From: Blasia pusilla
Lineage: Eukaryota
Length of the DNA: 64,000 nucleotides
Assembly: GCA_050084515.1 (NCBI GenBank)
Contig: CM114271.1
Span: 45,570,001 to 45,634,000, forward strand
Direction: 5' to 3'
Shown here: piece by piece, positions 4,411 through 64,000 of the stretch
Numbering within the stretch: the stretch's first letter is position 1
Layout: each line of letters starts with the position of its first letter
Translations under genes and position numbers: made by a program
The notes under the pieces: model-generated
The model's input: the letters and a program-made list of their open reading frames with translations, nothing else
Told to the model about the DNA's origin: nothing
Database searches by the model: none

Positions 4411-4462
4411 AGCTCCCTACTCCAAACGCTGCAGTCAAGCTGGGTCCTTGAGTTCTTTGAAC

Positions 4463-13315: not shown

Positions 13316-13414
13316 TGGAGAGTCCTTGGATCTCGAGGCCAATGAGGAGATGACAGGTGGCCAAGATATTCATGATGATGGAGTAGTCTTGGAGTACCTT
13401 CGTACTGGCAGCGT

Positions 13415-14694: not shown

Positions 14695-14698
14695 GCGT

Positions 14699-21980: not shown

Positions 21981-22618
21981 TACTATTAACGAAACATGGG
22001 GAGGTTACTAAAAGGGGAAAGAAAGAAAAGTGAAGACGCTATAAGAAGTGAAGCTTACGAGGAGTTGAATATTTTTTGTGGTTACCAATTTGATGTTAGC
22101 CTTTGGTATTTCTTTTTGCAATCTATTCTTTGCATCTCGGTCCTTCTTGGCATCTCGGCCTCTTTTCTATTGAAATCAGATCTTGGACTATAGTTGGACT
22201 AATCGTGCCGTGGTTGGCATGTGTTCGAGACATTCAAAAATACTAGACGAACATGTGTTGCACACACTGATCACCTGCTAGATGGAGACACATGTAGACG
22301 TTTGACAGACATTGTAAATTTTGAATATCGATAAGTATTTCTTACTTTCCCTCACTTTCCTACTTTGGAGTAGGAAGAGGCGGGAAAACTCGAGTCCTGC
22401 ATCCACGTTGAATCTCGCAGCTTTCTTGCTTCCTAATCTACTTCAAATTGGTAACCCTTCCTTATTTGCATCCATGTCAAATTTGCTTGCTAATGTTCTT
22501 TAATTGTGCAACTCCTCCTTATTTGCTGCCACGTCAAAGTTTTCTTGCAGATTAGTAGCCCGCAACTCCAACTATTATAGCATTTCAGCGCATTGAATTC
22601 ACGATAAGTAGGCCTTCA

Positions 22619-22804: not shown

Positions 22805-24200
22805 TCAAGAATATTGCAAGGGGCAAGAATATAGTTGAGCCGTAGTAAAAATCTCCTCACCTTCTATCCAAAAATTGTGATTGGCCAAAGTAGTCTCAAT
22901 CTCTCGTGCCTTCTCCCTTTGCCTCCCATCCTTGCCATTGAAATACTCCCTGAAAGCATTGGTGGCAACCATGGCATGGAACGCCTCCCTCAATTGTAAG
23001 ACGCATCCCAACATGATAAAGTTTGTGGGAAAGCGTGTGTTTGAATGAAGCAAAAATTGTCTCTTCACTAGATTGGTTTCCATGAATTTGGTCGTCACCC
23101 AAGTTCTAGTCTTCACCAATACTACCATCTCACGAGCTTGTGCAAAAATCTTGTCTATCCAAGGCCATTTACCCCACTCTTCGCAGACTAGATCAAGAGA
23201 ATGTGATACCCATCCATCCCAAAGAATATGAGGAAACTTTGCTTTGATAAGTTTCCCTATTGCTCCCTCATTGCTAGCATTGTCTATCACAAGTTGCAAC
23301 ACATTCTCTAGACTGATGGGCATGATAGTTCTCTCTATGTGACTTGCCAACCATTCAGCCATTTGGGATTCCCCCTTGGTGTCTACCAACTTAATCATAA
23401 CCTCACCTTGTGGACACGAGACCATGATGTTCACTAAAGACTCGCTCCTCACATTGGTCCAAGAATCCGTTATGATCATGGCCCCCAAACGCAAATTTTC
23501 TAATATGCCATCCACCTTTTCCTTCACCTTCCCCATATGTTTCTCAAGTAGGGTGGTGCACAACGAATTGTAACTAGGACTTGAGTAACCCTTCACCTTT
23601 TTTGTTGCCAACACTGCTTGTTTGAAAATATCTTGTTGTACTACGTTGAATGGTATTCCATATTTGTAGAAAAACTTTGCCCACATGCCATTTATAAATT
23701 ATATTCCTTGGATGTTGAAAGAAACTCTCAGATTGGCTTGCTTCTTCCCATAATACTCTCCCTGAAATGGGCCCAACAAGTCCTCTGCATTCCTCGAGAC
23801 TGTCACACGGTGGTATGTCTGCAACCCCATCAACATTTTGCACAACATAGACACTATTTTTTGTATGTTTTGAACCTATTTATAATGGAGTCATTTCTTC
23901 CACTTTACTCGTAGGTCTTGCTTCCCTTCTTTGTCCATTTCCAAGTTGTAACTTATTTCAGAGATCCCATTGCACGTTGGGGGGGACCTTCATACATAAT
24001 TTGGCATGATGGTTATCTTGATTCCCATCCTTTATCTTTCATCTCTCTCCTATAAAATACTCCACCATCCACCTGCTATGATAGGTTTTCATAGAAGAAG
24101 AACAATACTTGCATTGCCATGTGCTTGATGTTCCACCTTCCACCTGTACTTCTTCCAAATGTTCCTTCATAACATGTTGGAGTTCTCTAGCTTTGGTCAT
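22805..24200 (-). pseudogene. hAT-family transposase remnant (BED-like finger plus DUF659-type core)
   Basis: WAKFFYKYGIPFNVV..SPSYNSL..ITDSWTNVRSESLVNIMV..QLVIDNASN..FPHILW..HSLDL..TRFPTNF; upstream WQCKYC..HHAKLC. Confidence 0.85.
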
Positions 24201-31743: not shown

Positions 31744-34211
31744 TTACCTAGCTGTAATATTGGTAGTCCAATTTATGGTAGGAAAGCTCTCGTTGGAGGA
31801 CCTAGCAGAAGATCGTGATCCTTGATGAACTCGTTGATATTCGTCAAAAGTAGAAGCAATGAGGTTAGATGGAGAATGATTTGAAGGTGTTATGATCCCT
31901 TGTTGATGCTCCTCTAGATCCAGAGCTTCACTCAATGCAATAACAACTTGTTGTATATCTCGTCTATTCATTGCAGAAGGCTCCAAACATGCCATTGCTA
32001 TCTCAACAACTCTCCATGCAGAGTCTAGATTATATTTTGTGGCTAGCGCAAGATCGATTATCTCTTGGATAGAGTTTTTCTGTCGAGAATCTCCCACCTG
32101 TTGCAATAAACTCTTTCATTTTTAGAATTACTCAATAATATGATCTAAAGGGATAAGGGTGCCCTTGTTTCTATAGATTACCAAGAAAACTGAAATTCCG
32201 AAGATCTCATTAGAACCACTAGCAAATAACCAAATTTAAGGCTAAAATCCAATAATGAGGTGAAAGTTCAATTAAAGAGATTTGCAAAAGAAAAAGAATT
32301 CTAAATTCCTAACATTGGAATCAAGAATCCTTTTCATGCACATGGATATTAAGACACAAGTAAAAATTAAGGAATCATTTGAGTAGTAGTGGCCATGTGT
32401 AGTCCATACTTTCTTTGATTGTAGGTGATGATGATTTCATACAACCTTTTCCCTTCTTTTTGTGATTGATGTAACGAGGCAAAATAGAGGGAGGAAACAT
32501 GACAATAAAGTCATGTCATTAAAGCATGTATTATTTTCATACAATTGCACTTACCCAATCTATGAGAGTGGATGTCACGCCATTTGGAAATTGAATTGTG
32601 TTGTATTTTTTTCCAGTGATAACTTCAAGCAAAACAACGCCAAAGCTGTAGACGTCACTCTTTAAGTTCAATCGATTCTCCTTGAAGTACCTGACCAATG
32701 ACCACCCCAAGTTCTATCTTAAACATGAAGATATTTTATGAGGTTGTGGAAATTTTTTGAATTTAGGAAGCATGGATGGTCTAAGTGGAGAAGAGACTTA
32801 CTCTGGATCAAGATAGCCGAAGGAACCCTTCACTCCAGTTATAATCTCAATTTGATTATCCTGGGTTGTGCTTTTTGAAATGCCAAAATCTGATATTTTG
32901 GCCATGAGCTTATCGGCCAATAAAATATTGCTTGGTTTTATGTCTCGATGAATAACGGAGGGAGAGCAAGAATGATGCAAGTACTCGATTCCTGGAGAAA
33001 TATAGAAGCCACAAACAGAAAAAACAATTGTATATCTTCTCATGAGTTGTGGGATGATTTTGGGTATGAAATAAAATGGATGGAATGAAGAGGTTATTAG
33101 AGTGAGAAAAAGGAAATGCTTACCATAGAGGTGCTCTTGCAAAGTCCCTTGAGACATGAATACATATACTAAAACTCGCTCATTTTCTTCCTTGCAATAA
33201 CCTACAAAAGATACCAAATTTTTGTGGTGTAATCTTGACAGGAGCATTACCTAGCCACATCCACCACCAAATGTTGAATGAGATTCAAAGCTCAGTAATT
33301 GAAAGTGTCTATAGTTAAGCCTAGAAAGACTTTGAATGCCAACCATAATCATGCTTTTGGTTTGTTGTGGATCATAAGTTTGTATGATCTTTTACACTTA
33401 TTTCCAATTAATCAAAATCTTAGTGATGCTTGATCCTACTTTGACATATGAATTGGTTGATGACGACGTGATTTACCTCGTTCAAAAATTCCTTTTCTCC
33501 TTGGTGAGAATTTCCTTTGTTTACTTTCACTGCAACCCCTTGACCGTCAGGCAGTTGTCCGTAGTAAACATCTCCGTAGCCACCTTTACCAATTTTTCTT
33601 GAAAAGTTGTTTGTGGCATGAAGTATCTCGATTTTTGAGAAAGAAATAGGTTGGTTTGGATCTCTAGGCTTGTTTGAAAATGAATAAACCCCATGGGCAA
33701 CAACTTTCACATCAGATTCACCTGGACTAACAAAAAGAACCCATTCAATACTCACAAATAGAAGAGCAGGCCCTTCGTAGGAAACCATTTGAGCGGCAGA
33801 TCGTAATGCTCCCAAAAAAGCAGCTCCTTGCATCCGATCGAGCCAATTTCCTGAGATGTGCGCTTTTCCGTCGTATTTTGGTCGTGACAGTGCCCCGCCC
33901 TACGGGCCGGAAAACATAAAGATATTCATTGAATTTAGGACTAGACTACATATTATAAAAATTCACATAAGTAGACAACCATTACTCGATTGAGTAAGTA
34001 TTTTCATACCTTGATGTTTGGAATTCTTCCTCTTTCTATACACACAAATTAAAATCATCGCTAGAAGTAGTAGCCGAAGTGCGCCACCTATTGCTGCACC
34101 CACTATGGGCCCAATATTGGAGCTTAAGCCCTTGGAAGGAGATCTTGGTGAGGACGATGGTCGTAAGCAGGAATTTCCTCCAAAACAGAGGTATGGATTA
34201 TCATTTGCCCT
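31744..34211 (-). pseudogene. Receptor-like kinase (TM plus RD kinase), no ectodomain exons, one kinase exon deleted
   Basis: IGKGGYGDVYYG..VAVK, LSRLHHKNLVSFVGYC, HRDIKPSNILL..KISDFG, GSFGYLDPE, SDVYSFGVVLLE; lacks the LDWRTRLDI exon seen in the + copy. Confidence 0.88.
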
Positions 34212-36171
34212 GTAAAAATTCCAAAATAAGCAATGTTATTTTTGTAGATTAACAATGTCCTTGATCATTCAATCATTTGAAACTTGATCATTCACTCCCT
34301 TATATACAACACGTATCATTGAATTGCAACTTAATTACGACTATAAAGGAGAGGAAGGATTTCCTACGAAAAAGTCAATGTGCCCGTATCAATTTTCTTC
34401 GATAGACCTCATGGTAGATCTCCCTCCAAGAGGTTATGATCCAAATTTCTGGACAATATGCACAAAATACCATAGTTACATGCCACTCATCCATTGTATA
34501 GTTAAGACAAACAATTTGTAATATTTTTGGTCATAACAGTATCTATCTTCTAATCTAGATAATGAAAAATAAATTCTTAAGGTGATCTTAACAACTACAA
34601 CTTCAAATTGTGATCCAAATCTTTCTACTTTTCTTGAATAGATTATCAATATCATAATTGGTGTCTTATGATCCTTTTGCTGAGGAATCCGTATGCTGAG
34701 GGCTGGAGCTTGCCGCTTGGGCAACTTTTTTCTACTTCATTGCATTGAATCAGCTCTGCGGCTTCTGAGGGAATGAATAGCCCTAGAATCATCTGCGTAG
34801 AGGCGAGGCCCGAGCCTTAAATCGTATGCAGCTACAGTTTGGCGATTCGAAATTGAGTGAACTAGGGAATGAGGACGCGGAAGGAAAGTAGAGAGCTAAA
34901 AGAGGATATGATCATCTCTGGCAGGACTTGTGAGCTTCTGCTCGTCCTATTCCCCCAGTCAAACAATCTCCTCAGTCGGATGAAGAACCGGTAGGCGAAT
35001 TCGTCCTATTAGTTTCCAGTAACATCTGAGCATTTGACTAGCATCTCACATTTGAAAGAAACAAGTCAATTAGATTTTGCGCGTGTGAGGGGAATTTAGA
35101 AACAGGTTCCCATGTGGTCTGGGTACAACAACAGCGTGTCAATTCCAGATTCATAGGAGAGCACAGCGGTAAGTTGAACTCAATCCACTCCGAGTTGTCT
35201 GCTCAACGCATTTCAAGAACTTCTCTTGGACCATTCCTGTCTCTCCGTAAGCCTGTGTATCCCAATTGGTATTTCTATTCAACGTCAATGTCACATATAC
35301 TTAAGGGTGACTCATGGCAGTAAGGAAATGTCCTAGCAAATCCGGCGGCTTCATGGCGTTTCGATTCCAGGCATGGAATCTTGTAAAGTCGATGGCAGTT
35401 TTGTTTCCCTGGCAGAAATAGACTGCAGAGATAACGTCGAGCGACATCCTCTCTTCCATTACGGATTCATTGCCGTAAGGTCGAGGGACCTGGCTGTCGC
35501 CAATTAATCAACGCAGGTTTTGAGTGCGTAACGGAAACTTGTCCGATTATGACTCCGCATGCCCTTGGGACCAGGCGAACCATTGATTTTGTTTGGCAAC
35601 TCTCTCGTATCTCTGGCAATCATAGAAGAAGTGTTTCTCACTTTTATAGGACTTAATGTTGTGAGTTCCATTCCGATGTACACTGCCGGATCAGTGCAGC
35701 GCTAACTTCAGCACAACTCGAAAGATGATCGGCTTCGTTTGTGGCCTTTGCGCGACGCTCACGGGCCGACGATATGAAGTATTGATCGTAAATGTCCTCA
35801 ACGGGATTGATCACAGGAGATGGAGCGAGTGAAGCTTGCAATAGATGTGAAACAAGTTTCGGCACTGAGTAAATTCGGAGCAGAGATTTCTCAATGACAC
35901 AGTCGTGACGGAGAAATATTGCGCATTAAGTAGTATTTGGACTGCGTGGCAAACTGGGATGAGTGAAGATGGAATCCAATATCATATGACAGGAGTTTGT
36001 AGTGGAGGGAGAGGGAAATTAATTCGATTTGATTTCCTCATGTGCAGAAAGTGTTCGATAGACGCTCATGGGAGATACAATTTGACGTAGAAGCAGAAAG
36101 TCCGAACAACACAAGGTGATCATTAACTACGCCGCCTTATTTGGAAAATGTCGTCGGTACGGCTGCACACA

Positions 36172-39100
36172 ATGAGTCGAGGACGTGCGGGGGAAGTCCT
36201 GTTCTGTGTGGTCGTGTGGTGTTTGAGTTTTCTGCAGACGACGAACGCTCAAATAGGTACTTCCATCTTCAAGTTCGTAGCTGAATTGCCTCGCAGTTCT
36301 GGCACAATTCGAGGATACTTGAATCATGTCAAGCCAATTCTTCTTGAGCCATTGGTGAAGGGAATTTAGGACCTAAATAGGATTGTGCGTGCAGCTTCTT
36401 TCGGGTTGGTTTCAGCATATTTGTGGTAACTACAGAGACTCGTTCGATCTTTGAGCGCAGGTTTCATCAGCATCGATTGCGGCACGGGTTCCAACTACAC
36501 TGACAATCGCAAGAGTTTTTGGGTAAACGATGAAAGATACAGAATGGCATAGTAGATATCTCGGGAGCGAATCTCAACACAAATCAAGTGAATGATATTG
36601 GCCCGCAGTTGCAGACGATCAGATACTTCCCTGGGACCCAGAGCAAGTCGTGTTACATGATTCCTGAAGTCGAAGCGAACCAGTTGTACCTTGTTCGCTT
36701 GATGTTCCTCGCTGGTGACTTGACTTCCAAGCTGGGGAAATCGATCACCTTCGGCGTGACACTTGGAAATTACCGGTGGGAGGATGTTGTAATCGATGAT
36801 CCTCTCACTCCTGTGATCATGGAAGCTGTACTTACAACGATGATGAGTCCGTGGCCTAAAATGAGTCTGAAAGTGTTTAAAATTTCAGATAATCATTGAT
36901 AGTTAGGTTTTTCATGGTAAAGTTGTCTGCAATCATAAGACACCAATTATGATATTGATGATCTATTCAAGAAAAATAGAAATAATTTGGATCACAATTT
37001 GAAGTTGCAGTTATTAAGATCACCTTCAGATTTTTTTTCATTATCTAGATTAGAAGATAGATATTGTTATGACCAAAAATATTACAAATTGTTTGTCTTA
37101 ACTATACTATGGATGAGTGGCATGTAACTATGGTATTTTGTGCATATTGTCCATAAATTTGGATCATAACCTCTTGGAGGGAGATCAACCACAAGGTCTA
37201 TCAAAGAAAATTGATACCGGCACATTGACTTTTTAGTAGGAAATCCTTCCTCTCCCTTTTAGTCCTAATTAAGTTGCAATTCAATGATACGTGTTGTATA
37301 TAAGGGAGTGAATGATTAAGTTTGAAATGATTGAATGATCAAGGACATTGTTAATCTACAAAAATAACATTGCTTATTTTGGAATTTTTACAGGGCAAAT
37401 GATAATCCACCTCTGTTTTGGAGGAAATTCCTGCTTACGACCATCATCCTCACCAAGATCTCCTTCCAAGGGCTTAAGCTCCAATATTGGGCCCATAGTG
37501 GGTGCAACAATAGGTGGCGCACTTGGGCTACTACTTCTAGCGATGATTTTAATTTGTGTGTATAGAAAGAGGAAGAATTCCAAACATCAAGGTATGAAAA
37601 TACTTACTCAATCAAGTAATGGTTGTCTACTTATGTGAATTTTTATAATATGTAGTCTAGTCCTGAATTCAATGAATATCTTTATGTTTTCCTTCCTGCT
37701 CTTCTATTTGTGAATATTGAATGGGTTCTTTTTGTTAGTCCAGATGAATCTGATGTGAAAGTTGTTGCCCATGGGGTTTATTCATTTTCAAACAAGCCTA
37801 GAGATCCAAACCAACCTATTTCTTTCTCAAAAATCGAGATACTTCATGCCACAAACAACTTTTCAAGAAAAATTGGTAAAGGTGGCTACGGAGATGTTTA
37901 CTACGGACAACTGCCTGATGGTCAAGAGGTTGCAGTGAAAGTAAACAAAGGAAATTCTCACCAAGGAGAAAAGGAATTTTTGAACGAGGGAAATCACGTT
38001 GTCATCAACCAATTCATATGTCAAAGTAGGATCAAGCATCACTAAGATTTTGATTAATTGGAAATAAGTGTAAAAGATCATACAAACTTATGATCCACAA
38101 CAAACCAAAAGCATGATTATGGTTGGCATTCAAAGTCTTTCTAGGCTTAACTATAGACACTTTCAATTACTAAGCTTTGAATCTCATTCAACATTTGGTG
38201 GTGGATGTGGCTAGGTAATGCTCCTGTCAAGATTACACCACAAAAATTTGGTGTCTTTTGTAGGTTATTGCAAGGAAGAAAATGATCGAGTTTTAGTATA
38301 TGTATTCATGTCTCAAGGGACTTTGCAAGAGCACCTCTATGGTAAGCATTTCCTTTTTCTCACTCTAATAACCTCTTCATTCCATCCATTTTATTTCATA
38401 CCCAAAATCATCCCACAACTCATGAGAAGATATACAATTTTTCCTTTGAGAAATGGTTCAAAGGTTCTATTATTTGCTTTATTGAAAGGAAATTGTTTTG
38501 ATGGAGGGAAAAAATCTTGGAATATTGGGAATAAACTTGAGTGTGTTCATGAGATTCCCTAATTTCCACCAACTTGTTTCTCTCTTTGAAATAGGTGAAG
38601 GAGGGACTGCTGTACCACAACCACTAGATTGGCGAACAAGATTAGATATTGTCCTCAACGCTACTCGAGGTGATGATGATATTGGGATTTAGCATGCATC
38701 TAAATTCATGCATATGGATCATAGTGTTAGGGAGATGTGTGCATTTAGAGCACTTATACCTTTCAAATGAAGGATGTGTGATTCTCTTTACTCAAGAAGA
38801 GTCCTTCATGCGATCAATTCATTGTTCTACTCTAACTACTACAAGTTTTTTCTGTTTGTGGCTTCTATATTTCTCCAGGAATCGAGTACTTGCATCATTC
38901 TTGCTCTCCCTCCGTTATTCATCGAGACATAAAACCAAGCAATATTTTATTGGCCGATAAGCTTATGGCCAAAATATCAGATTTTGGCATTTCAAAAAGC
39001 ACAACCCAGGATAATCAAATTGAGATTATAACTGGAGTGAAGGGTTCCTTCGGCTATCTTGATCCAGAGTAAGTCTCTTCTCCACTTAGACCATCCATGC

Positions 39101-40127
39101 TTCCTAAATTCAAAAAATTTCCACAACCTCATAAAATATCTTCATGTTTAAGATAGAACTTGGGGTGGTCATTGGTCAGGTACTTCAAGGAGAATCGATT
39201 GAACTTAAAGAGTGACGTCTACAGCTTTGGCGTTGTTTTGCTTGAAGTTATCACTGGAAAAAAATACAACACAATTCAATTTCCAAATGGCGTGACATCC
39301 ACTCTCATAGATTGGATAAGTGCAATTGTATGAAAATAATACATGCTTTAATGATAGGACTTTATTGTCATGTTTTCTCCCTCTATTTTGCCTCGTTACA
39401 TCAATCACAAAAAGAAGGGAAAAGGTTGTATGAAATCTTCATCACCTACAATGAAAGAAAGTATGAACTACATATGGGCACTAATACTCAAATGATTCCT
39501 TAATTTTTACTTGTGTCTTAATATCCATGTGCATGAAAAGGATTCTTGATTCCAATGTTAGGAATTTAGAATTTCTTTTTCTTTTGCAAATCTCTTGAAT
39601 TGAACTTTCACCTCATTATTGGATCTTAGCCTTAAATTTGGTTATTTGCTAGTAGTTCTAATGAAATCTTCGGAATTTCATTTTTCTTGGTAATCTATAG
39701 AAACAAGCGCATCCTTATCCCTTTAGATTATGTTATTGAGTAATTCTAAAAATAAAAGAGTTGATTGCAACAGGTGGGAGATTATCGACAGAAAAATTCT
39801 ATCCAAGAGATAATCGATCCTGCGCTAGCCACAAAATATAATCTAGACTGTGCATGGAGAGTTGTTAAGATAGCAATGGCATGTTTGGAGCCTTCTGCAA
39901 AGGATAGACCAGATATACAACAAGTTGTTATTGCATTGAGTGAAGCTCTGGATCTAGAGGAGCATCAACAAGGGATCATAACACCTTCAAATCATTCTCC
40001 ATCTAACCTCACTGCTTCTACTTTCGACAAATATCAACGAGTTCATCAAGGATCACGATCTTCTGCTAGGTCCTCCAACGAGAGCTTTCCTACCATAAAT
40101 TCGACTACCAATATTACAGCTAGGTAA
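36172..40127 (+). pseudogene. Malectin-like-domain receptor kinase (LRR-I-type): signal peptide, partial malectin, TM and kinase; rest of ectodomain absent
   Basis: MSRGRAGEVLFCVVVWCLSFLQTTNAQI; GFISIDCG..LQTIRYFPG..SCY..LYLVRLMF; TM IVGATIGGALGLLLLAMILICVYRKRK; kinase exons. Donors appear mutated to GG (~37988) and AT (~39316). Confidence 0.85.
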
Positions 40128-40889
40128 AACTAGCTGAGTATCCTAGATTGCAAGGATTTACAATTAGCTTTTTATTACATTTCACATGTGTTCATAACTC
40201 TTAACACAACCTAATTGGATTGAAATGGAGAAAATATCTAGGCATTGAATTGTAGGGTTAATGGATTGGATTAAGGATAGTAGAGTATTACTCCCATTTC
40301 AAAATTACCAAGATGCCCTATCCTAGGGGAAAAAATTATGACCATGGTTGAATTGGTTCAATAGATAAAGTAGCTCTATCTTTTTTAGGAATTATTACTC
40401 TTTCAGCCCAATAGATCAATACCTTACGAATGCCATCTTGAGTTTCCATGTCACACTTAGTTTTCACCATAAGGAAATTGATATATCTAGTCATGGACCC
40501 TTTGGTTTTAATGACCATAATCTTTTAGTTGTGCACCATTTTTTTCTTTGCTTTATGATTTATCCAAGTTTGTTGAAGAGCATCAAAGCAAGAGTATTAA
40601 GACACCTTACTAATGACAAAGGATTAAATTGATAGGGGAATTGGTGATGGGATTCTAGATCTATAGTGCAAAGATTATCCTTAGAAAGGTGTCGTGATTT
40701 TAAGTTCGTCTTATGTCTCAGACAGCCCACGATATGGTGTGGTTCTTGAATTTAGCTGTTCCGGTCATGAATCAACTGCAAGATGTCCTCCACCTGGACG
40801 ACACAACGCTGGTGGACAAGTATTTACAAGGCTTACATGACCTCAACTGTCGGGCTTAGGCTTCGTCCAACCATGAAGTACAGTGGAAA

Positions 40890-46945: not shown

Positions 46946-48105
46946 ATGCCTTCGCAAGCATATCCCCCTCCTCCACCCCCATGGGCACAAAGCGAGATGC
47001 CATGATGGGTACCTATGATGATGCAATCACCGATGGGTTATGGAAGTCAATTTCAGCCACCATCGACCAATGGAGCTCAATCATCTATGAACATCCCATC
47101 CCCATGGGTAAGTAGGCTTACTATTCTGCCCTTTCTTGTTTTGCACACGGGAATTCAATTAATTGGAAGTCTAACTAGCTAATTGTATTTCTTTTGTGGA
47201 CACAAGGGACATGGGCCATTCCAACCGCCGCCCCCAACACCGTTGGCACCTCCATTGGCTAACGGGAATACGGACAACGAATTATACCGTAGGTCTCAAT
47301 CTTGCGCAACACCAAGCCCATCAGAAAATTTGACCCCGCAAGCAGGTGCATCTAAAGGTAACTTCTCACTTGGTTCCGAGTTTGCAAATTTATATTGAAT
47401 AGGTTGTTGTATTATGAAAGTTGTGAAACTGTTACTAGTATAAGTTGGTCTTATAGTTAATATAGTTCAACATAATTATGATTTGGTGAGTTAAAAATTT
47501 TTTGCCCTACATTTTTTACATCTGAGAATTGGGATGGTGGTATATTTGTAGGAGAACGGCAGAGTCGCACAAAGCGTGATTTGTGGACTCGTGATGTGTC
47601 CATTAGGAAGGAGCAGAACTTAAAACCTAGATGTGAGCTCATGCCAAATGGTATTCCGTCGCCTAGAGTTCCAGGTTATGAGCCTTGGCTAAATGAATTG
47701 AAGGTATGGGTGATGAGGTACTTGGACTTATCATGCATTGAGATTAGTAAACAGAATTCTATCAGCATGGCTGCTGTTCAGAATCACATCCTTGAGGCAT
47801 ACACATATGTTGGTGCATCATCTCTTTCGCTTGATTTCATGAAGAAAAAAATAGCACAACTATTGAAAACCGAGCGATCCAATGTCAAGAACTATTGGAC
47901 ATTACATGGGGCTCATCGTGCAGTCCCGTGCCACCCTGATACCGATGAGGAGTCATGGAATCGATTAGTAGATTATTGGCTGTATGAGGAGGGCAAAATG
48001 AAGGCAGAAAAGATGGCTCGAGCAAGGGCCAAGGTCCAGACTTTAAATTTCTCCGGCCGTGCAGGTTTAGATGGACTTGATGTAAGTCATCTTGGCATTC
48101 CCTAG
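46946..48105 (+). pseudogene. CACTA/En-Spm TnpA-like (Ptta-type) gene remnant with Pro-rich N-terminal exons
   Basis: EESWNRLVDYWLYEEGKMKAEKMARARAKV..SGRAG resembles the Ptta/En-Spm family motif. Confidence 0.65.
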
Positions 48106-50404: not shown

Positions 50405-51835
50405 ATGATTGGTCATTTGGAGATTTTTTATGACGCAAAAGTGCATGTTCCAACAAGATTTCATGATTTATAGGCCAGCGGAAGAAGAGGGGAGCCAAAA
50501 AATGTCAAAGAAAGAGAAAGATGAATGATGTAGGAGTAAAGGTCCAAGTCTCCTTTCAATTTTACTTGTGTTACCCACGCACCCGAAGCTCTCACCGTTG
50601 GATGGACGTGAAACACAAGGGATGTAGGTTTGGCAATGTCCTCTTGCTCTTTGACGGTGTGGATCTTGGATATCATTCTCTATACTCAGTTAAAAATTTG
50701 GAAACCTCACTTAGGGTTTTTGATTTTGAATTCCTTCTATAGGTAGTCATTTGGATATTTTTTATGATGCGGAAGTGCATGTTCCAACAAGGTTTCATAA
50801 TTTATGGGTCAGCGGAAGAAGAGGGGGGCCAATAAATGTCAAAGAAAGAGGAAAATGAATGATGTAGGAGTGAGGTTCCAATTCTCCATTGAATTTTACT
50901 CATCTTATTCACGCACTTAGAGCTCCCACCGTTGGATGGAAGTGAAACACAAGGGATGTGGGGTTGGCAATGGCCTCTTGCCCTTGGATGGTGTGGATCT
51001 GGGATATCATTCTCCATATTAAGTTAAAAATTCTGAAGCCTCATTTTGGGTTTTTGATTTTTAATTCCTTCTATGGGTTGTCATTTGGAGATTTTCTTTT
51101 TCTATTGGGAGCATGAGATGGAAGTGCATGTTCCAAAACGTTTTCATGATTTATGGGCTAGCAAAAGAAGAGGGTAGCCAAAAAATGTCAAAGAAAGAGG
51201 ACGATGAATGATTTAGGAGTAAGGTTCCAAGTTTCTATTGAACTTTACTCGTCTCATCCACGCACCCGGAGCTCCCACAGTTGGATGGACGTGAAACACA
51301 TGAGATGTGGGGTTGGCAATTCCCTCTTGCCCTTGGACAGTGTGGACCTTGGATATCATTCTCCATCCGCAGTTTAAAATTCTGAAACCTCACTTACAGT
51401 TTTTGAGTTTTAATTCCTTCTATAGGTGGTGATTTGGAGATTTTCTATCACACAGAAGTATATGTTCCAACAAGGTTTCATGATTTATGGGCCAGCGGAA
51501 GAAGAGGGGGGCCAAAAAATGTCATAGAAAGAGGAAGATGAATGATATAGGAGTAAGATTCCAGTCTTCTTTGAATTTTAATCATCTTACCCATGCACCC
51601 AAAGCTCCCACCATTGGATGGACGTGAAATAGGCGGGATGTGGGTTTGGCAATGCCCTCTTGCCATTGGACGGTGTGGATCTTGGATATCATTCTCCATA
51701 CTCAGTTAAAAATTCTGAAACCTCATTTAGGGTTTTTGATTTTGAATTCCTTCTATGGGTGGTCATTTGGAGATTTTATTTTTTCTGTTAGGAGCGTGAT
51801 GCAGAAGTGCATGTGCCAAAAAGGTTTCATGGGCA
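50405..51835. repeat. ~340-bp tandem repeat, about 4.2 copies
   Basis: GTCATTTGGAGATTTT..GTGCATGTTCCAA..GAAGAAGAGGG recurs near 50410, 50744, 51078, 51428, 51760. Confidence 0.9.
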
Positions 51836-53991: not shown

Positions 53992-56900
53992 GGGGGCTGG
54001 TATTCTGGCAGGAGAGAGTAAGAGAGGAGAGGAAGAGAGGAAGAGAGGAGAGTCTCTCTTAAAAAAAAAGGGCCAAATCCGCCTCTTCTCTTCAAAACTT
54101 TTTGACATATTTGAAATTTTTGTTTGCTTTCAAATTCAAGAAATATTTAGAAGAGAGTATTTAGTGGTCCACATTTGGCCCTAAAAAACCTCCTCTTTCC
54201 TGGGGGCGAGAAAAAAGGAGACATCATAAGACCACTACAAACATTTTTCCATCACTCTCCATGTGAGCCTAAGTTTCTTAACATTCCCTGTCTCGGTCAA
54301 CAAAAAGCAGTGCCCTTGGTATTTTTGTTGGAGGACCACCCAGATGCCAACCTCTCTTTTTGCAGGGATTGTTGCCTGCATCATGGCCTCCCCTAAATTT
54401 CCCCATAATTACCCCATAACCATTCATAACTTGGTTATGAATGGTGTCTGCTCAAGACCAACTTTGTGAAATGTGAACACATCAGATCCTAAGGCTGAGA
54501 AACCGAGAAGCTGCACCCCTCCCAACCCGTAAGAAAGCTCACCATAAGAAAGGAAAGATTTTTAGAAGTGATTTTCTTCCACCCTGCACCCACGACGATC
54601 TAACAGGTTGGGAATCCGAAATGGCAATCCGACAGGTAGTAGGAATCCTGCACATCTTAGACAAGAAAAGAAGCCTACAACTGGTTTGACGAATGTAGGG
54701 GAACGAGCCAAAAGTTAAGAAGCCCGCCACAATGCATCAGAAGTTGGTCTCACCGGGATAGAGTCCGATCACTCAAGCAGTCAACCAGTCGGAATCCGAC
54801 AGCTTGCTTGGAAATGGTTAAAAAGTTGCAGTGGGAAAAAAGCAAAAATTTGCAACCCGTCGGAATCATACGGGTTGCAGAATTGTAATTCTGAGTAGCT
54901 AAAAGAACACAATCCACAAGTCCAAAAAAATATTCCAGCAAACTTTTACAAACACCATTATGGGTTGAAAAAATCTCGTCCTTTATTACCTCCGAAGGAA
55001 CCTTAGAAATGTACATTTGACCTAGTCTATGATTTCTTCAGCCTCATCATCTACAAATTTACTCCTAACTCTCCTCGGTGACAGTACCAAAGGAATGTCC
55101 TGGGATACAAGTGGCTCCCCAGGCCGATTGTAGACGGGGATCGAAAATGTTGGCGAATTCGAGAGCCTTGGGCCCCCCCTAGGTACACCATAACGGTCCC
55201 ATGTAACCTGATTTGAGTCCCACCGCCTTCCTCGACAGTATACCTTGTACGCTCTGCAATGTGACACCCATCCACTATCAATATGTGCTCTGTCCCCGGT
55301 AATACCATTATGGCAATCGCACAGGTAGTAGGAATCCAACACGTCTGAGAGAAGAAAAGAAGCCTACGCCTGCCTTTACGAGTTGAGGGGAAAGTGCCAA
55401 GGGAAGAAGCCCGCCAGACTGCCTCTTAAGTTGGACCAACAGGGAAAGAGTCCAATCAAGCAACTTGTCGGAATCCGACAGGTTGCCTGGAAGTGGTAAA
55501 AAGGGTGCAGTGGTCAAAAAGTGAAAAGTTGCAAGCAAGAGAAATCCGACGGGTTGCAGTGGTCATAAAGTGAAAAGTTGCAAGCAGGAGAAATCCGACG
55601 GGTTGCAAAATAGAAGTCCACGGAGTACATAGACGATCACATTCGAAAAGACAAAAAATGTTCAGCAAACTTTTACAAGCACCACCATCGCTCGAAAAAA
55701 TCTTCTGCTTTATATCATCCGAAAAAGCTCTGAATCAGACATTTGATCTATTCTATGAAATCTTTTGCCTCATCATCAAAAAACTCCCTACTCCAAACGC
55801 TGCAGTCAAGCTGGGTCATTGAGTTCTTTGAACTCACTCGTCATCGTCCGAGAGCTCTTGCAAAATTACTTTTGGCCTTGCCCTCCCGATTTTTGGAATC
55901 GTTGGAAGTGACGATGGAATCACTACCAAGGGTGGGTGGAACCGAGCTCTCCGCGGTGGAGAGTTGTACGCCCAACGAGCCTTTCGTGATTTCGCCTTTG
56001 CCTCCTTGCAAAGGTCAAACGATTCGCCTTCCCTCGAGGCGTAGAATGTTCTGCCACTCTGCCAGCGCCTTTGATACTTGCCCTGAAAGTCCCACTAAGT
56101 CGAACACCAAGTCACCCGGCCTTGAGCAGAGCTCGATGAGCGTTTGCATCAGGGCTGGCGACTTTTCCCTTCCTCCCAGAAGTGGGGTACTGTCTTGCAT
56201 ATAAATTCCCGGGGGGAAATTGTACAAACTATCTAAGTTGTATCCATCTTAGCATGGATCCACAGGATCCTGGATCTTGAACACCTGGAAATTGTGCTCG
56301 GGCCGAACGAAGCAGTACACGTAGGAGTGGTCCATCTGTAAATAAGCACGTTGGAAACAATGTCAAGAACTAAAGAAGTCGGCTTTGAGAACATTTTCAT
56401 TCATCGACTTTGGATCAACTGTCGAGTCCGACGGGTTGTTTTGTCCGGACCAACCCGCCGCCTTCCGACGGGTTGGGTGACTAAGACAACCCGTCGGGCT
56501 CCGTTGTTTTTGTCCGTGAGCAACCCATCGGAAGTCGACGGGTTGCTGGCCTAGAGCAGCCCATGCTCGCCTGAGAGCAACCCGTCGCTATCAGACGGGT
56601 TGCAGCTTTCCGGAAACAGAGGGAAAAACCAAAAGCAACTGCAACCGTCGGGTTCCGACGGGTTGTAGGTACACCACGGTTTTCCCTGTGTATGTGGGAA
56701 AGATGCAACCCGTCGGTTTCATCTTTCCCATCACGGACAAAAAAAACGGAGATTGACACTCATTATACTCACTCAACGGAGATGAACACTCATTATACAC
56801 ATCATTAAAATATAATTGAGATTATAGTACAGGAATTGAGCCTTACCCGAATCTGACTCGTCGCGGATCGGAGTGGGTACTCGTTTTTTATGATCCACGA

Positions 56901-58920
56901 TTGCGCCGTCCTCCACTTTAGCAACCTCTTGACGCACTCGAGGTTGAAGAGCTCGTCCTCGCTCCCTCCAGGCAACACCAAGAAGCAACCCCTGTCACTC
57001 AGATAGGCGTCTGCAAAGGAGAACAATAGCGCAATCTGGTCATAAGAGAGCGGCACATTCCACTCAGGTACCTCGTCCGACGGATTCTCGCCCCAAAGTC
57101 GTAACCTCGAGGGCAGATCACCGATCAAGAGATCCACCGCAACCTCTTCGACCACTCCATTCACCGCCCAGCGCGTGCGTGTTCGTTTGCTGGAGCTTCC
57201 GCCCAGCGTTGTCAATTTATCGATGGTGGTGTCGACGCTTGAGAATCAAGCTCTTGACTCATCCAAAGAAAGGAGTGAATCAAGGAGGACGCTTGTCCGG
57301 GTCGTTGTTTGTCTGTGTCTTTCCAAGGATGATGGACTGTATTCTCCTTGGGACAACCCTGGCACCTCTCGCTTTCGCTTCTCCCGAGTCTGCGGACGGT
57401 TTGTCGGGGTCTCTATGACCTCAGACTCTGGTGGGGTTGTTTTCGCCAGGACCTGGTCCGACCCTCTCTCCCCGCCGCCGACGATTCCGCCTCGGCCTTG
57501 AATCTTCAGCCTCTCTTTGGGAAGACTCGGCCTCTCGAAGTTTTCCTTCCTCGCCTTGCCTTTGAGACCCATTTGTGGATTTGTCTTTGGTGTGGGGACC
57601 TTGGAAGCCAACTCCGCTGTCTCGTGGGCCTGCTCTTTGCATCTCCTCCGAAGAAGTCTTCAGCCGCACTAAATTGGGGATGTTGTCTTGTCCTCGAGGC
57701 CCCTTTGCATCATGAAGCACTCGTAAATCCTTATCGGTGATGTCTTGAGGGTCGTTGAAGTCGAGCCAAATGGGGCAATTCTCCACCTCCCAATCGGACA
57801 TATGCTGCCCCATCTCCACGTCGTGCACATGGAGAATGTCTCGCATCCGGCGAAGCCCACAATTTCAAGGGTGCCGATAATTTTCCCCACGCACTGCATT
57901 CTTACATTGGATGAGGTACTTGAAGACCATCCGTTGGGCGCTTTTAGTCGAACAGTAATCGGCCGTCATTGTCCTCTGAGATCTCGCTTCTTCTTCGCTT
58001 GATCCCGTTTGTTCCCCTCTACTTCTTCGTCAAGCTCGCCGAGGAGGACGCAAACCTTGAACGTTGTCTTGAATCCTGGTTTTTGGTTGGCTTATCCCGG
58101 ATGTCGCCGAGCCAAATCTCAAATCTCGTAACTTTCAAGGTTTGCTTCATCGGGATGGGCTCTATTCTTCGAGCTCCGCTTGCAGGACCGCCCAAAGACG
58201 GACTTCCCGATAACCCGCAACGCGCCCCGTAACGACCATTTGCGGAGCGGTGGGAGATCATCGATCGGACACACCCAGAGGATGGTGTGCCGCCCTCTTC
58301 GGGCCTCTGTGCCCTCGAGACCGATTTTCATCGGTCGGATCCTCCTAAACTCGCTTATGCCGGATAACGCAAAACCGATGCACGCGATCCAGGGACACTT
58401 TCTCCCCAATCCGACCATGCAGATCTTCATCCCTTTTCGGGCGCTTGATAATCGCCTTGGCTCCTTGTAGAACTCCGGACCAAGTTTGGGGTTGAGAATC
58501 TTGATGTATCGCTGCATCTTGCTCGCCGTGTATTTCGTTCTTGTCGCAGATAGTGCGGTTCGATGAATTTCAGCAAGACCGAGACGCAGATACCTTCTCC
58601 CTCCGCTCCGGCTCGGTCAGGCGCTCTTCTTGCGGCCTGTATCTTCGACCAAAGCAAAGGATGGTTAATTTGCGCATCTTGGGAAATAAACTTATTTGCC
58701 CAAGTTTTCTTTTTAATCTGAGCACCCTTTGCAAGCATCAGATTGACAAGGGCATCGCCCAAGAACCCCCTGTAGTCTCCCAGAAGCGTCGTAAGCACCT
58801 TCCTCACCCGATTGCAGTCCTGGATCCAGTGGTGGGTGACATTCCCCTCCGATACAATCCTGCACATCCAAACTCAACCCGTCAGAAAATTTGTAAGTTA
58901 CATGGGTTCCTGCAACCCGT

Positions 58921-60194
58921 TGTCGTATAGTAAAATCAACCAGTGTGTAAACTCCTTCGTCATTAAGTGTTAGATAGAGTTTCATTAGTATTAAGTAAAT
59001 TGGCTTAGAAAAAGGAGATTCTTATGTTTAAACCTCTTTATGGTGCCTATTTTATGCGGGCCCAACTTTAGGAAAAGGAGGTAATAAATAAAAGATGACT
59101 TTATAAAAGTAAAGTAGTTGCTTTAATGAAAAGCAAAAGTAGTCTTGGTTGGTGGCTAGGTTAGTTGGGGTAATTTGGAAAATATCATGTGGGTAAAAGA
59201 GGATATTTTGGAAGAGATAAGAGGAAATCTACTTGTGTCAAAATGTGATTGGCTAAGCCTTGGGAGGAAGCCATGTGGCACAAGATAAGATAAGCTCTAT
59301 TTCGTACTCTTGTGGATCCCTTGTGAGTATATAAAGAGGAGGGACCTTCAAGGGTTCATCACCTTCTATTCCACATCTTGAGTCTCTCGTGTCTCTCTTG
59401 AGTGTATGGCTTTGGGATTGCTTGCTCTTCCAATGAGAGTGGATCACCCCTCTTGGGATAGTAACTTGACTTTGGTCTATTCTTTGAGAGATTTCTAGAG
59501 TGTGGTGTGTGTGTGTGGGGATGAGAGGTTTGTCACCGTAGAGGAGTTTAGTCATACTAAAATAGTGGAAGTTTTGGCTTGTTACTTCCCCAATGAGAGT
59601 GGATTACCCCTCTTGGGAGAATAACTCCGCCAAAAACCTATTCTTGAGGAGAGTAGAGAATGTGTGTCAAGCATGGATAGGGGTGGAGCACGAGCTGTGC
59701 CCGACTTTCCTTTCCTCAATCCTTACCATGTCAAGGTACTCTTTGTAGATAGGCACTGGTTCACTCGCTATTTAGTTTATCACTTTGGGGAGGCGTTCAT
59801 GAACCAGGTCATGCAATCTCCAACTCCGGTGATTCTTCTTATTGTCACATATGGAAGGACATGGGATTGTACTTTGTATGTCCTTATATAGCGATCCATG
59901 GATGTCAATAGGCCTGCTCAAGTAGGGTTTAACACTAGTTGTGCTATCTTCCTCGTGTACAAGCGTAAAATAGTTTATAGGGATTTTATAGTTAGGAATT
60001 TTGGGGTCCGATGTTACGAAGAAGTGATCGCCTAAGCACTTCCATTTGTGATACCTGTCGTGAGAGAATGGAGAGTGTACATCATAATTTTGTATTGAAA
60101 AAGGAGAACTTATTAGAGAGTTCACCTTGCATCAACCGCATCTACCGCAGCTAGAAGGCCCGCCCTTGCTCGAAGAAAGACTCTCGACACGACA
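58921..60194. mobile_element. Solo LTR (1274 bp), copy B, 4-bp TSD CCGT, inserted in a MULE palindrome
   Basis: TGTCGT..ACGACA; CCGT at 58917-58920 and 60195-60198; removal restores GCAACCCGTCGGACTCCGACGGG. Confidence 0.9.
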
Positions 60195-60800
60195 CCGTCG
60201 GACTCCGACGGGTCGTCACAGCTCAAGGTCGGATTCTAGCAACGAGCTAAATGATGCAACCCGTCGGAGTCCGACGGATTGCATTCAGATTTGCTAATGC
60301 CTGGTTTCAACCCATCGGACTCCGACGGGTTGTGCAACTGAACATACTAATGTGAACATAGCAATTTGACGCGAAATTTGGGGAAACAACTTCCGAATGC
60401 AACCCGTCGGACTCGGAGGGGTTGATTTCGGCCAAAAACAGTTTTGAGGCAAGCAACCCGTCGGACTCCGACGGGTTGCTTTGGGCAAAAAATATTCTAA
60501 ACCTGCGGTCAGTCGAACAACTCGTCGGAGTTCGACGAGTTGCATTCTTCAAAAAACATCCTGACAAGGCGGTGAGACGAGCAACCCGTCGGACTCTGAC
60601 GGTTTGCTTTGGGCCAAAAACTAATTAAATCTGTGGTCAATCGAACAACTCGTCGGAGTCCGACGAGTTGCATTCTTAAAAAAACATCCGAAAAAGTGTC
60701 GAGTCGAGCAACCCGTCGGAGTCCGACGAGTTGCTTTCGGCAAAAAAAAACCTAACCCATTCATCAATCGAGCAACTCGTCGGAGTCCGACGAGTTGCGT
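60195..60800. repeat. Regular palindrome array (~64-bp period) in the intron after the ParB-like exon
   Basis: Units near 60256, 60307, 60399, 60453, 60517, 60581, 60645, 60708, 60772; 60451-60481 is a perfect inverted repeat around one central base. Confidence 0.93.
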
Positions 60801-62377
60801 AAAGTGTTAAAGATACTCACGGTTCATGGCATGCATTGCCATCTCCACCGTCGCCATGTGATGAAGGAATGGGTGAAGGACCACTGCCTTCAGAAATGTG
60901 CCTCCAATGAGTTGGGCCGCTCCTCCGCAAACTTGGTCCACGCCATGAACCTGTGATTTCCATCCCAGATGAAGAAATGCAGATTCCTCATCCAGCTGAA
61001 TTCCGCGAACTCAACTTGCCTTCTGAAATCCTGGTCTCGCATCCTCTAGAATGTGTCAAGCTTTTCCAAGTCCTTCTCCGTAACCAGAGCTTGGGTTCCA
61101 TGCTCGTCGTAAGGCTGAACATAGAAGGGAGGAAAGCTGTCCACGTAGGATGCTGTCGCCGCCGATTGTTTAAGCTTCGCGATGTCCTCGTCGGACTGAA
61201 TTTTATGGACGTATTCCATTGTCCGCAATCGGCAGAGTGGAATCCTCGGGGCGTTGTGGCCTCCATGAGTGCCATCTGCTTTACCACCTGTCAGAACCGG
61301 GACAAGATGAATAAGCTACACTGAATTCCCAATGAATTGCAATTCACATAATTCAAAAAACCCAGATCCTCTCTTACCCGCTCGAAAATGGGGTTGGTTT
61401 CTTGACCAGCTAACTTGTCTGAGACAGAAGCTGGAAAATCGACTGGGAACTCGTCGATCCGATAGAGGTCGATGTCCTCCGCCGGGCTTGGAGTCGAGAA
61501 TGACCGCTCTCCGGCTTCTTCGCCATGTCCACCATCTCCACGCTGGCGGTCCTCATGACCTCGTCGTCATCGATTTCAACTTCTGGCGCTTCCACTATGT
61601 TGATTGTGTCCCCGGACTTCATGGGGGACATTTCCCGCATCTCAACACTTTCGGTTGGACGGGCAGGGCTATCTTCAATGGCTATCGCTTTTTCCCTCCT
61701 CGCTTTAGCCAATTCTGCTCTCCTCACCGACGCGTCCAGACGCTTCTTTTCTCTCTTTTCGTCGGCGATCCTTTTCTTCAAGGCCTGCAACGTCTCAGCC
61801 TCTGCGTTCTGTTTATCGAGCGCCTCTTGAACACGTCTTGCAAGAAGCACTTGGTTGTGCATCTCCGCTTCCCTTTCCCGCTCCTCGATTTCCTGCTGCC
61901 TAATTTCATTTGCCAAACGAGGCCGGAGATCTTGACGCAGAGTCCTAATGGACTTGAGTGAAGCTCCTGACTTGTTGGCTTGTGATTTTTTCCTCATCAT
62001 TTTTTCCGGAAATGCCTCCATCTATGTCCACGACGAATCCCTTGATCAGTCGCCTTGCTGATGTCGAGATGGGTAGCTTGAATTGCCTTGATGGGTAGCT
62101 CGAATCGTCTCGCGATCGTTCAGTTGAACCGTCTCGCTGTCGTTCGGTCAAACCGTCTCGCTGTCGTTCCCTCCTATCGACTCGCGATGTGTCTCCGTGT
62201 GAAACGCCCTTCAGATCGATCATCGCGCGGGAGAGTGAGGAATGAAGATCGCGAAATGAGAAACCGAAATGAGCGATTTTCGCCCTATTCATACTTTTCT
62301 AGCCGTTTGGTGACCGTTGGGTCCCGGTCCTTCGACGGCAACGCGTCGGAGGTTATGGAAGTCCAGAGGTGAAAAAT

Positions 62378-62975
62378 GGCAACCCGTCGGAGTCCGACAG
62401 TTGCGCGCGCCTCCGCCATCCTAGGTACGCCGCCACGCGCGCGCGAAAGCAACCCGTCGAGACCGACGGGTTGAGCGCCGCCGTCCTTTTCGAAAAGAAC
62501 GCGAGGTACCGTGCAACCCGTCGGAGACCGACATGTTGCGCGCCTCCGCCCGTGTTTGGGACGGAACGGACGTACCAGGAAATCCGTCGGAGACCGCTGC
62601 GGTTGCACGCCCTCGTCAAGGGTTAAGAACGCAGCTTCCGTGCAAGTCGCCGAGTCCGGCCTGGTCGCACACTTCATGTAAGCACCACAAGGCGAGGCCC
62701 TTGCGCAACTCGTTGGAAGGCGACGGGTTGCACGCCTCGCCGTCTTTGGGCAAATAGGTGAGGCACCCGCGGAACTCGTTGGGAACAGACGGTTTGCACG
62801 CCTCCGGCATCTTCGGGCAAGAAGGAGCGGTATCCGAGCAACTCGTCGGAGAGCGACGGGTTGCTTGCTTCGTCAATGTTTGGTAGAAGCATGCAACCCG
62901 TCCGAAGCCAACAGGTTGTAGGCTTCAGTTAGCTTCGGGTAATTTTGGAGTTACCAGGACTCCGACGGGTTCCAA
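62378..62975. promoter_or_regulatory. CpG-rich palindrome array in the head-to-head intergenic region (putative bidirectional promoter)
   Basis: Multiple GCAACCCGTCGGAG..CGACGGGTTGC variants between the - strand cargo gene (~62292) and the transposase ATG (63194). Function is inferred. Confidence 0.6.
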
Positions 62976-63193
62976 GTGTGATTTGCAACCCTCTACTTCC
63001 CAAATCCAGTAACATATTGCAATAGAATTGAATGTGTTACAGAATTGGATCCATTGTGTCAGACAATGTCACCCACCAAATTCATCTTGTCAGTAAAAAT
63101 CTGTCAGGAGTATCTATTTTCCTATTCACTATAAATTAAAAATTCTCATTCTCATTCTCATTCTCAGTCTCCTCCCGTTGGAATCTTCTTGGA

Positions 63194-64000
63194 ATGGATA
63201 ATTATGTTAAGCTCACTTGTGGTAGTCATCTGGCGGCCCTTCCTCAATCAGAAATCATTCGACCCCAAGCTCGTGAGTCTTTCATAGCAAAGTGGATGAA
63301 AATTTTTCATCTGCTCGATTTCTTCTCCAATTGGAACCATCTTTGTATCCAAAGATATTAGGTGGACGATACGGAAGACATAATAGGTGAGACGGTCCAG
63401 CCAAAGTGACCTCGCATCGTAAAGTATGGAATCTCCTACCTCTAGCAAATGGTCAATACAGAGTTTACGGCCTGCCCCTGAATTCGTCTGTTTCCCAAGT
63501 AGACGGTCTAGAATTTCCTAGTGCTCCGAGCTCTATGTTTGCAACTCCAAGCTCTGCAGATCCGGCTTCCACTCCAACTTTGCACGCTCGTAACAATGTT
63601 GTTCTTCCTGAAGAGATTCCGGATGTTATCAACCTCAGTGGATCCGCTCGGACACCAATTGGGCCCTCTGTCGCCTACTGTTCCTCTTGCGAGTATTAGG
63701 CAATAGTTTGCTTTGCCTCTCGGCCTTGAAAATGTTCAAGCACATTCTTGTCGATTTAGCCGCCGCCCACGTACGATGGTAATTGCATTTTTGAGTTGCC
63801 TCCACTTGCTGCTCCTGCTCAAAAGAAGGATGGAGGATGCTTGAAGGGTATGGACAGAAAGTCTGATTGTCATCGATGGTGCAGGCTTCAACGGACTAGT
63901 GCTTCCATTCCATATGGTCCTTGGATTGTCTCCCTCCGCCAATGCCTGGGAGCCTTGGAGTGTAGAAGTCCAGCATGCCCGTATCTAGAGCGCAACGGGC
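63194..64000 (+). pseudogene. MULE transposase copy 2, 5' part (frameshifted, cut by window end)
   Basis: Homologous to 7968-8770; MDNYVKLT start; CLGALECRSPACPYLERNG. Confidence 0.88.

Follow-up and report, generated by a model that had tools for sequence, protein, structure and literature searches.

Palindrome arrays in the non-coding DNA of a Mutator-like transposon of Blasia pusilla as probable self-recognition sites for its ParB-fold cargo protein

Why does a transposon carry, inside one of its introns, an array of palindromes spaced at whole turns of the DNA helix? We addressed this question in a 64,000-bp stretch of the Blasia pusilla genome (assembly GCA_050084515.1, contig CM114271.1, positions 45,570,001 to 45,634,000; hereafter the window, in whose numbering coordinates are given). 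The host of the array is a Mutator-like transposon with a full length of about 12.3 kb, which encodes a transposase and a cargo protein with a ParB-like domain. We infer that the arrays of this family are probably self-recognition sites for the element's own ParB cargo protein, comparable to parS or to the targets of VANC. The array lies in the intron that follows the ParB-like exon:

60191-60797: palindrome array of 10 units in the post-ParB intron, of which the last six recur every 63-64 bp and form a ~128-bp dimer

Each unit has the form CAACYCGTCGGA-N-TCCGACGRGTTG. Scored at 7 or fewer mismatches to the consensus, units start at 60191, 60257, 60308, 60400, 60454, 60518, 60582, 60646, 60709 and 60773, and the outer left arm of the first (60191) is truncated by a long terminal repeat (LTR). 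Start-to-start intervals are 66, 51, 92 and 54 bp at the beginning of the array and 64, 64, 64, 63 and 64 bp among the last six units (60454-60797). Because Tandem Repeats Finder (TRF) favors a period of 128 bp (83% matches) over one of 64 bp (69%), the ~128-bp dimer holds; unit scan and TRF thus agree with an earlier sequence-only reading of this DNA, according to which six units recur every 63-64 bp and alternate as a dimer. The complete site spans 25 bp and consists of two 11-bp half-sites (core GTCGG) opposed across a fixed 3-bp centre. In a survey of 1105 units from 118 copies, this centre is A-N-T, with ACT or AGT in 1032 of the 1105; other arrays depart from this length, as 1,432 matches with a different centre show. 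The palindrome of the sequence-only reading is real and has a central base, C or G, but the spelling given there omitted that base and yields 0 matches at up to 3 mismatches.

The motif is far from a chance occurrence. The window contains 46 units, compared with 0-2 in each of 20 shuffles, and the 390 Mb genome (26 contigs) contains 3076 exact matches to the unit motif and none to a reversed control. All 46 units fall inside two copies of the transposon:

2620-12356: element copy 1, 9,737 bp, with a 9-bp target duplication
53992-64000, ending about 3.56 kb beyond the window: element copy 2, 13,573 bp including an LTR, with a 10-bp target duplication

Beyond the window, a motif scan bears out that the sites are confined to this family: each of 41 motif-picked loci, some of them overlapping and none from beyond the first 9 Mb of contig C1, shows at least 300 bp of homology to the palindrome-masked element. 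The same 41 of 41 sampled loci speak against an independent miniature inverted-repeat transposable element or a dispersed minisatellite. At least two units lie downstream in 136 of the 141 ParB-exon matches of at least 100 aa, including 16 of the 18 under 80% identity; copies L105, L112 and L123 have no units downstream of ParB. Two protein searches for other ParB-cargo families with different palindromes returned what is apparently the same family.

Within a full element the units form seven clusters with unrelated spacers. In addition to the post-ParB array, the window includes the following:

56451-56665: palindrome array of 5 units in the predicted methyltransferase intron
55461-55605: palindrome cluster of 3 units in the probable last intron of the cargo gene
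54782-54877: palindrome pair 3' of the cargo gene
62380-62918: palindrome array in the divergent promoter region of cargo and transposase
10123-10392: palindrome array of 6 units in the predicted transposase intron of copy 1

None of the 26 units of copy 2 lies in an exon, with exons covering 4792 of 8734 bp (55%). These units fall into five clusters and therefore represent five independent events. That the arrays avoid recognizable exons, as proposed from the sequence, is upheld by these counts, with support from RNA for the post-ParB intron only.

The sites outlast the DNA between them. In eight old copies, whose ParB regions are about 64-79% identical and which form a set without the rows whose low identity stems from frameshifts, the spacers match those of a young copy at 0.47-0.57, compared with 0.46-0.52 for shuffles, and the arms match the consensus at 0.81-0.87. 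Of 48 consensus arms, 47 show no change at positions 7-12, the CG-rich core, and the outer positions tolerate asymmetry.

Spacing is conserved as well. The distances between units peak at 51-55, 62-67, 73-76, 83-85, 92-96 and 103-107 bp. For 40 spacer types R is 0.72 at a period of 10.5 bp, and for the 20 distinct lengths it is 0.55 (p=0.0025). In six old lineages (11 copies), R is 0.61 for 64 distinct spacings, which fit a period of 10.58 best. When only the spacings of these lineages below 80 bp are used and 62-66 bp is excluded (n=27), R is 0.57, a value that 10 of 10,000 random draws attained; for the 30 globally distinct lengths of the old lineages the figure is 0 of 10,000. Of the arrays examined, only that of the post-ParB intron is phased at whole turns. 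Spacings that hold neighboring sites on one face of the helix suggest cooperative or bridging binding. Separately, an A-tract lies at a similar offset in every 39-bp spacer of 60479-60772; these tracts are therefore also in helical phase and could bend DNA.

In the cargo gene, on the minus strand, a ParB-like exon follows the part for a charged N-terminus, and a helical region and a split methyltransferase come after it. Apart from those of the post-ParB intron, the exon limits of this gene derive from open reading frames (ORFs), GT-AG signals and homology:

61345-62021, minus strand: cargo exon 1 (approximate limits), encoding the N-terminus, which is charged and coiled-coil-like
60821-61290, minus strand: cargo exon 2, ParB/Srx-fold domain (WDGNHR), with a frameshift and stops in copy 2
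58860-60820, minus strand: post-ParB intron (GT..AG), with both the array and a solo LTR inside
56847-58859, minus strand: cargo exon 3, which encodes the helical region and the methyltransferase's first half; motif IV is DLPS in copy 2 and DVPSG in copy 1
55838-56339, minus strand: cargo exon 4 (approximate limits), for the half of a beta-class N4/N6 methyltransferase that binds S-adenosylmethionine

Because RNA reads join 58859 to 60822, the array sits in a real GT-AG intron. This joint occurs in all three RNA runs (2, 3 and 2 reads), which belong to one study, carry the same species label as the genome and may contain reads from any copy. A second joint, 55295-55825, skips the 3-unit cluster at 55461-55605, its middle being unresolved. 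Read depth over the cargo gene is low; the gene is transcribed and spliced at a low level. No ORF other than those of the cargo and transposase was found in the element, and hence no partner ParA.

In an intact copy the ParB exon is modeled with high confidence (predicted local distance difference test, pLDDT, 92) and has the fold of a ParB N-terminal domain. The top Foldseek matches are ParB-CDP, Noc and KorB, at E 5e-3 and weaker. By VIA, KorB scores Z 8.8 (root-mean-square deviation, rmsd, 2.1 with 91 residues aligned), PadC 7.9 and Srx 6.9, and the top eight rows are all of the ParB/Srx fold. The Box II motif GxxR is retained (G in 54 and R in 53 of 59 sequences), as is a later, Box III-like asparagine (51 of 55). 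A word-based protein search with the exon returned no matches, and Pfam scans gave it no name. The Atlas shows the ParB exon at L056:6510-6986 to be similar to clusters of fungal DUF3723 (31% of members) and of ParB_N (11%). The ParB exon of the intact copy has 141 relatives; of ten that were looked up, six are from Riccia sorocarpa and three from Adiantum nelumboides. Full-length relatives in Riccia are about 1,200 aa long and have the layout of the Blasia cargo. The Riccia and Adiantum cargoes have diverged to about 35% identity.

The C-terminal part has the fold and the motif order (IV before I) of beta-class N4C/N6A methyltransferases. In a Riccia relative it aligns with M.BceJIV (Z 7.8, rmsd 4.0, 173 aligned) and M.MboIIA (Z 7.4), which are middling scores, and PF01555 matches the copy-1 equivalent of exon 4 at E=9e-5, below the curated cut-off. 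The canonical catalytic motif of this class is (D/N/S)PP(Y/F/W). The cargo lacks it: at motif IV, both aligned element copies and 14 Riccia proteins have D[LMV]P[ST]G, and fern relatives have DLPTR and DVPFG. Because the aromatic residue of DPPY is absent, catalysis is doubtful, and the domain may be catalytically dead, judging by this motif.

Several features together fit a protein dimer on DNA: (i) the site is two-fold, with a fixed centre; (ii) its core is invariant; (iii) exons are excluded; and (iv) spacings are whole turns. Among the candidate binders we favor the cargo protein: palindromes are the targets of ParB proteins, and the arrays are internal, whereas the AtMu1 transposase is reported to bind terminal inverted repeats (TIRs). 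The array would then be a bank of binding sites, kept in the element's non-coding DNA for its own ParB-fold, helical and methyltransferase-fold fusion protein. Opposed half-sites would suit a dimer on double-stranded DNA with neighbors in contact, tandem duplication and unequal exchange would add and remove units, and same-face spacings would be retained in the post-ParB intron. Through these sites the element would probably recognize its own DNA, either to counter silencing or to regulate itself, in the manner of VANC on VANDAL elements. The cargo protein might dimerize, bind nucleotide or slide, and alter methylation; the anti-silencing role is suggested by analogy with VANC and with VirB, described as an anti-silencer that loads and slides. 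Thus, of the sequence-only proposal of parS-like sites for a dimeric protein, confinement, arms that outlast spacers, helical phase and a ParB fold with GxxR now speak in favor, and binding itself is a prediction.

Several observations weigh against recognition by the cargo protein. (i) Inserted copies show no protection of the sites from methylation-type decay: private CG transitions occur at 6.4% in arms and 6.2% in flanks, and CHG transitions (H being any base but G) at 5.1% and 7.1%, figures that describe copies in bulk rather than active ones. (ii) Selecting units by similarity to the consensus inflates arm identity. (iii) Inspection by eye defined the old lineages, which also share ancestry. 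(iv) Some spacers contain ~10-bp sub-repeats, so that slippage could add to the phase, and the peak for the other arrays, pooled (n=22, R=0.41), is displaced from whole turns by about 3.7 bp. (v) Foldseek returned no match to the ParB exon model at E 0.001 or better. (vi) No helix-turn-helix (HTH) appeared among fold-search matches, in which the helical region was modeled only within a 1089-residue Riccia relative (mean pLDDT 54). (vii) The site is unchanged down to about 64% cargo identity, and therefore co-evolution is not demonstrated. (viii) Cargo and transposase always occurred together in the copies examined, so that these two candidate binders are inseparable. A dimer prediction scored 0.00, which is evidence neither way.

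A bolder version is speculative, and we would not expect it to be right: a phage-derived, nucleotide-gated ParB clamp would load at the phased intron palindromes and spread over the 12-kb element like VirB or KorB, with its altered methyltransferase fold shielding, reading or re-marking cytosines, and so let the family escape silencing.

The transposase is the other protein that the element could direct to these sites, where it might achieve synapsis or self-activation and so make up for short, degenerate terminal repeats. Its gene begins near the end of the window:

63196-64000, continuing past the window, plus strand: start of the Mutator-like transposase, with a C-terminal SWIM domain

The protein is a Mutator-like element (MULE) type transposase by its first Atlas hit (0.96; 187 features; PF10551 on 61% of cluster members); the SWIM match (E=0.009) is below the cut-off, and a Pfam scan gave no direct MULE hit. 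Paired ends were found in 6 of 12 elements examined, five with perfect 9-10-bp target duplications and one with 8/10, as in Mutator elements and MULEs, which make target site duplications of 9-11 bp. Long TIRs are absent; the ends have short, degenerate inverted repeats. MULEs without TIRs exist, for example VANDAL. That the ends share only weak inverted similarity and GA-rich tracts favors a role for internal sites in transposition, as do the reported ability of AtMu1 transposase alone to bind and activate its family and the suitability of phased sites for a bridged transpososome. However, the strongest arrays lie 2.3-10.3 kb inside the element and the terminal 600 bp hold a single degenerate unit, AtMu1 is described as peaking at TIRs, and the published elements that combine ParB with arrays have transposases of other superfamilies. 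We therefore regard transposase binding as unlikely.

We give even less credence to a host transcription or chromatin factor recruited by the element. Palindromic sites suit many dimeric host factors, and one array does occupy the divergent promoter region. On the other side, all sampled motif loci belong to the family, a site of 25 bp would be long if a host factor were to bind it, and a protein of a palindrome-binding family is encoded by the element itself.

Could the array simply be a neutral minisatellite, in which the palindrome promotes slippage and unequal exchange and the phase stems from ~10-bp slippage? Some observations are what such a process would leave. Unit number ranges from 0 to 15 among the 118 copies. 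Inserted copies decay like methylated DNA, as dead copies should; decay at the neutral rate, which the sequence-only reading took as a sign against itself, is thus seen within inserted copies, where arms change at the flank rate, and constraint is visible between lineages only. Copy 1 has lost ~2.6 kb between two palindrome half-sites that share 15 bp, and with it the equivalent of 60332-62956 (cargo exons 1-2); we rejected this segment as a nested insertion or cassette, its presence being the normal state and copy 1 a deletion. L233 appears to have undergone a similar array-to-array loss. In a test of the palindromes as deletion hot-spots, 14 distinct junctions included 1 with both ends at arrays and 10 with one, counts that masking and nested insertions confound. 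Neutrality is nevertheless already strained by arms that persist where spacers are unalignable, and further by one site recurring in seven clusters with unrelated spacers, by the invariant core among consensus units and by a phase maintained across lineages whose spacers are unrelated. We consider it improbable, at a level slightly below that of the host factor.

The symmetry of the units bears on whether they act as RNA. The sequence-only reading had described symmetric substitutions, and paired variants do exist: at position 5 the 1105 units comprise 521 C/C and 328 T/T pairs. Symmetry is not universal, since 224 units are mixed. Position 5, a CHG site, is the sole symmetric variant among 24 unit types. 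Because the oldest lineages are mostly C/C there, T/T appears to be a derived unit spread by duplication, perhaps from one or two events. Covariation of the arms was sought in naive tables and in an ancestry-controlled test, which used 24 groups of 8 or more units (781 of 1105) and omitted 324 units in smaller groups and columns more than 30% polymorphic; neither showed an excess. With 22 symmetric private changes where 16.6 were expected, and 100 non-symmetric ones where 100.7 were expected, covariation is unsupported, and the pattern reduces to one inherited C/T variant. Intronic RNA hairpins, acting as a splicing aid or as a small-RNA source or decoy, are the least probable of the explanations considered: the intron is transcribed and spliced and its RNA folds far beyond shuffles (-287 kcal/mol, z=-16.7), but a strong fold is expected of any palindrome array, the conserved A-N-T centre cannot pair and would require a one-base loop, there is no compensatory change beyond one inherited site, arrays occur in the promoter region too, helical phase has no role in RNA, and an Rfam search gave three chance-level rows, none near a gathering score.

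The family comprises roughly 900 or more copies: a back-translated ParB motif has 897 exact matches and one left-end word 505, and about 2,000 candidates were obtained at first look. Of the first 100 matches to the ParB motif on contig C1, about half cluster in a 4-Mb stretch (G000:C1 7.6-11.5 Mb). The array of copy 2 is interrupted by a retroelement remnant:

58921-60194: solo LTR inserted into one copy 2 palindrome, 97% identical to 13412-14698

Its 4-bp target duplication, CCGT, lies at 58917-58920 and 60195-60198. The same LTR family occurs in three transposon copies (window 58921-60194; L001:2186-3025; L014:33-518), and the solo LTR is the most expressed part of the stretch, with reads that join LTR end to LTR start. 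At the 3' end of the cargo gene, 54621-55072 and 55310-55801 form an internal duplication of about 450-500 bp (68-74% identity) with a palindrome cluster in each. Copy 1 is nested in a Ty3-like retroelement region (338-1605, 12357-16000), in which one ORF encodes a C5 cytosine methyltransferase (PF00145, E=9e-12) and another is reverse transcriptase/RNase H-like. Elsewhere in the window, a receptor-like kinase gene region at 31156-40709 is duplicated in inverted orientation (96-99%), tandem arrays occupy 20977-21983 (180-bp units) and 50410-51777 (334-bp units), and 22805-23698 and 47482-48105 hold remnants of a DUF659 (hAT-like) transposase and a weak Transposase_24 match.

How do sites for the cargo protein compare with known systems? 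Canonical parS has 16 bp, compared with 25 bp for the Blasia site, and the Blasia element differs further from ParB-parS in having no ParA and no HTH detected in whole-protein fold searches. The likenesses are the ParB fold with GxxR, the Box III-like asparagine and the palindromic site; ParB-N6N4 methyltransferase fusions are reported to be common in phages, and the nucleotide preference of ParB-fold proteins to be unpredictable (PMC12704722).

Closer parallels come from algae; these comparisons follow the passages of each source that describe the element. Plavaka (EnSpm/CACTA) elements of red algae carry a ParB-like protein, PAG3, adjacent to tandem inverted-repeat arrays; for PAG3, binding and modification of the element that encodes it have been proposed (Petroll et al., bioRxiv 10.1101/2025.02.11.637652). 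The Blasia element likewise combines a ParB-like accessory gene and inverted-repeat arrays in one DNA transposon, with massive amplification. In Plavaka, however, ParB is fused to a 2-oxoglutarate oxygenase and the PF01555 methylase is separate, in PAG2 with SET, whereas in Blasia ParB and the methylase fold are one protein; the carrier is EnSpm in a red alga with arrays beside PAG3, rather than Mutator-like in a land plant with arrays in introns and promoter; and those passages make no mention of helical phase (10.1101/2025.02.11.637652). Sola1-1_Ec32 of Ectocarpus encodes a 1104-aa protein with ParB-like and N4/N6 methyltransferase domains on the strand opposite the transposase (PMC12477816), an architecture and gene arrangement like those of Blasia as far as descriptions can be compared. 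It differs in its Sola carrier and brown-algal host, and the passage on it mentions neither an array nor the status of the catalytic motif (PMC12477816).

Among plants, VANDAL elements of Arabidopsis have family-specific motif arrays in intronic, intergenic and terminal non-coding DNA (PMC5735166), and share with the Blasia family a Mutator-like carrier, a cargo gene, rapid gain and loss of units and C- and T-type variants. By that account, the VANC motif is 9 bp, non-palindromic and in one orientation, in contrast to the 25-bp palindrome of Blasia, and VANC binding and demethylation are demonstrated (PMC5735166), whereas for Blasia we infer binding. Pfam scans of the Blasia cargo, a ParB-fold protein, gave no sign of homology to VANC. 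The 4mC methyltransferases DN4MT1 of Marchantia, also from an early land plant, share the beta-class amino-methyltransferase fold and have an intact TSPPY motif where Blasia has D[LMV]P[ST]G; the passages of that report on DN4MT1 make no mention of ParB (bioRxiv 10.1101/2021.02.12.428880).

Because the algal Plavaka and Sola elements are published, the design of a ParB cargo with inverted-repeat arrays is already in print. A literature search, with most subscription papers outside its scope, found no such element in land plants, no helical phase and no degenerate methylase. The new aspects are thus probably the land-plant Mutator carrier, the conserved phasing and the probable pseudo-methyltransferase, and the design itself extends a known kind.

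For the biology of the family, there are now a precise 25-bp candidate site, an invariant core and a spacing rule drawn from hundreds of copies, and an expressed, spliced cargo gene is available together with relatives in a liverwort and a fern. Binding and anti-silencing are therefore directly testable in early land plants. Should recognition by the cargo protein prove true, plant Mutator elements would have a second anti-silencing system, independent of VANC, and a ParB clamp might be at work on eukaryotic chromatin.
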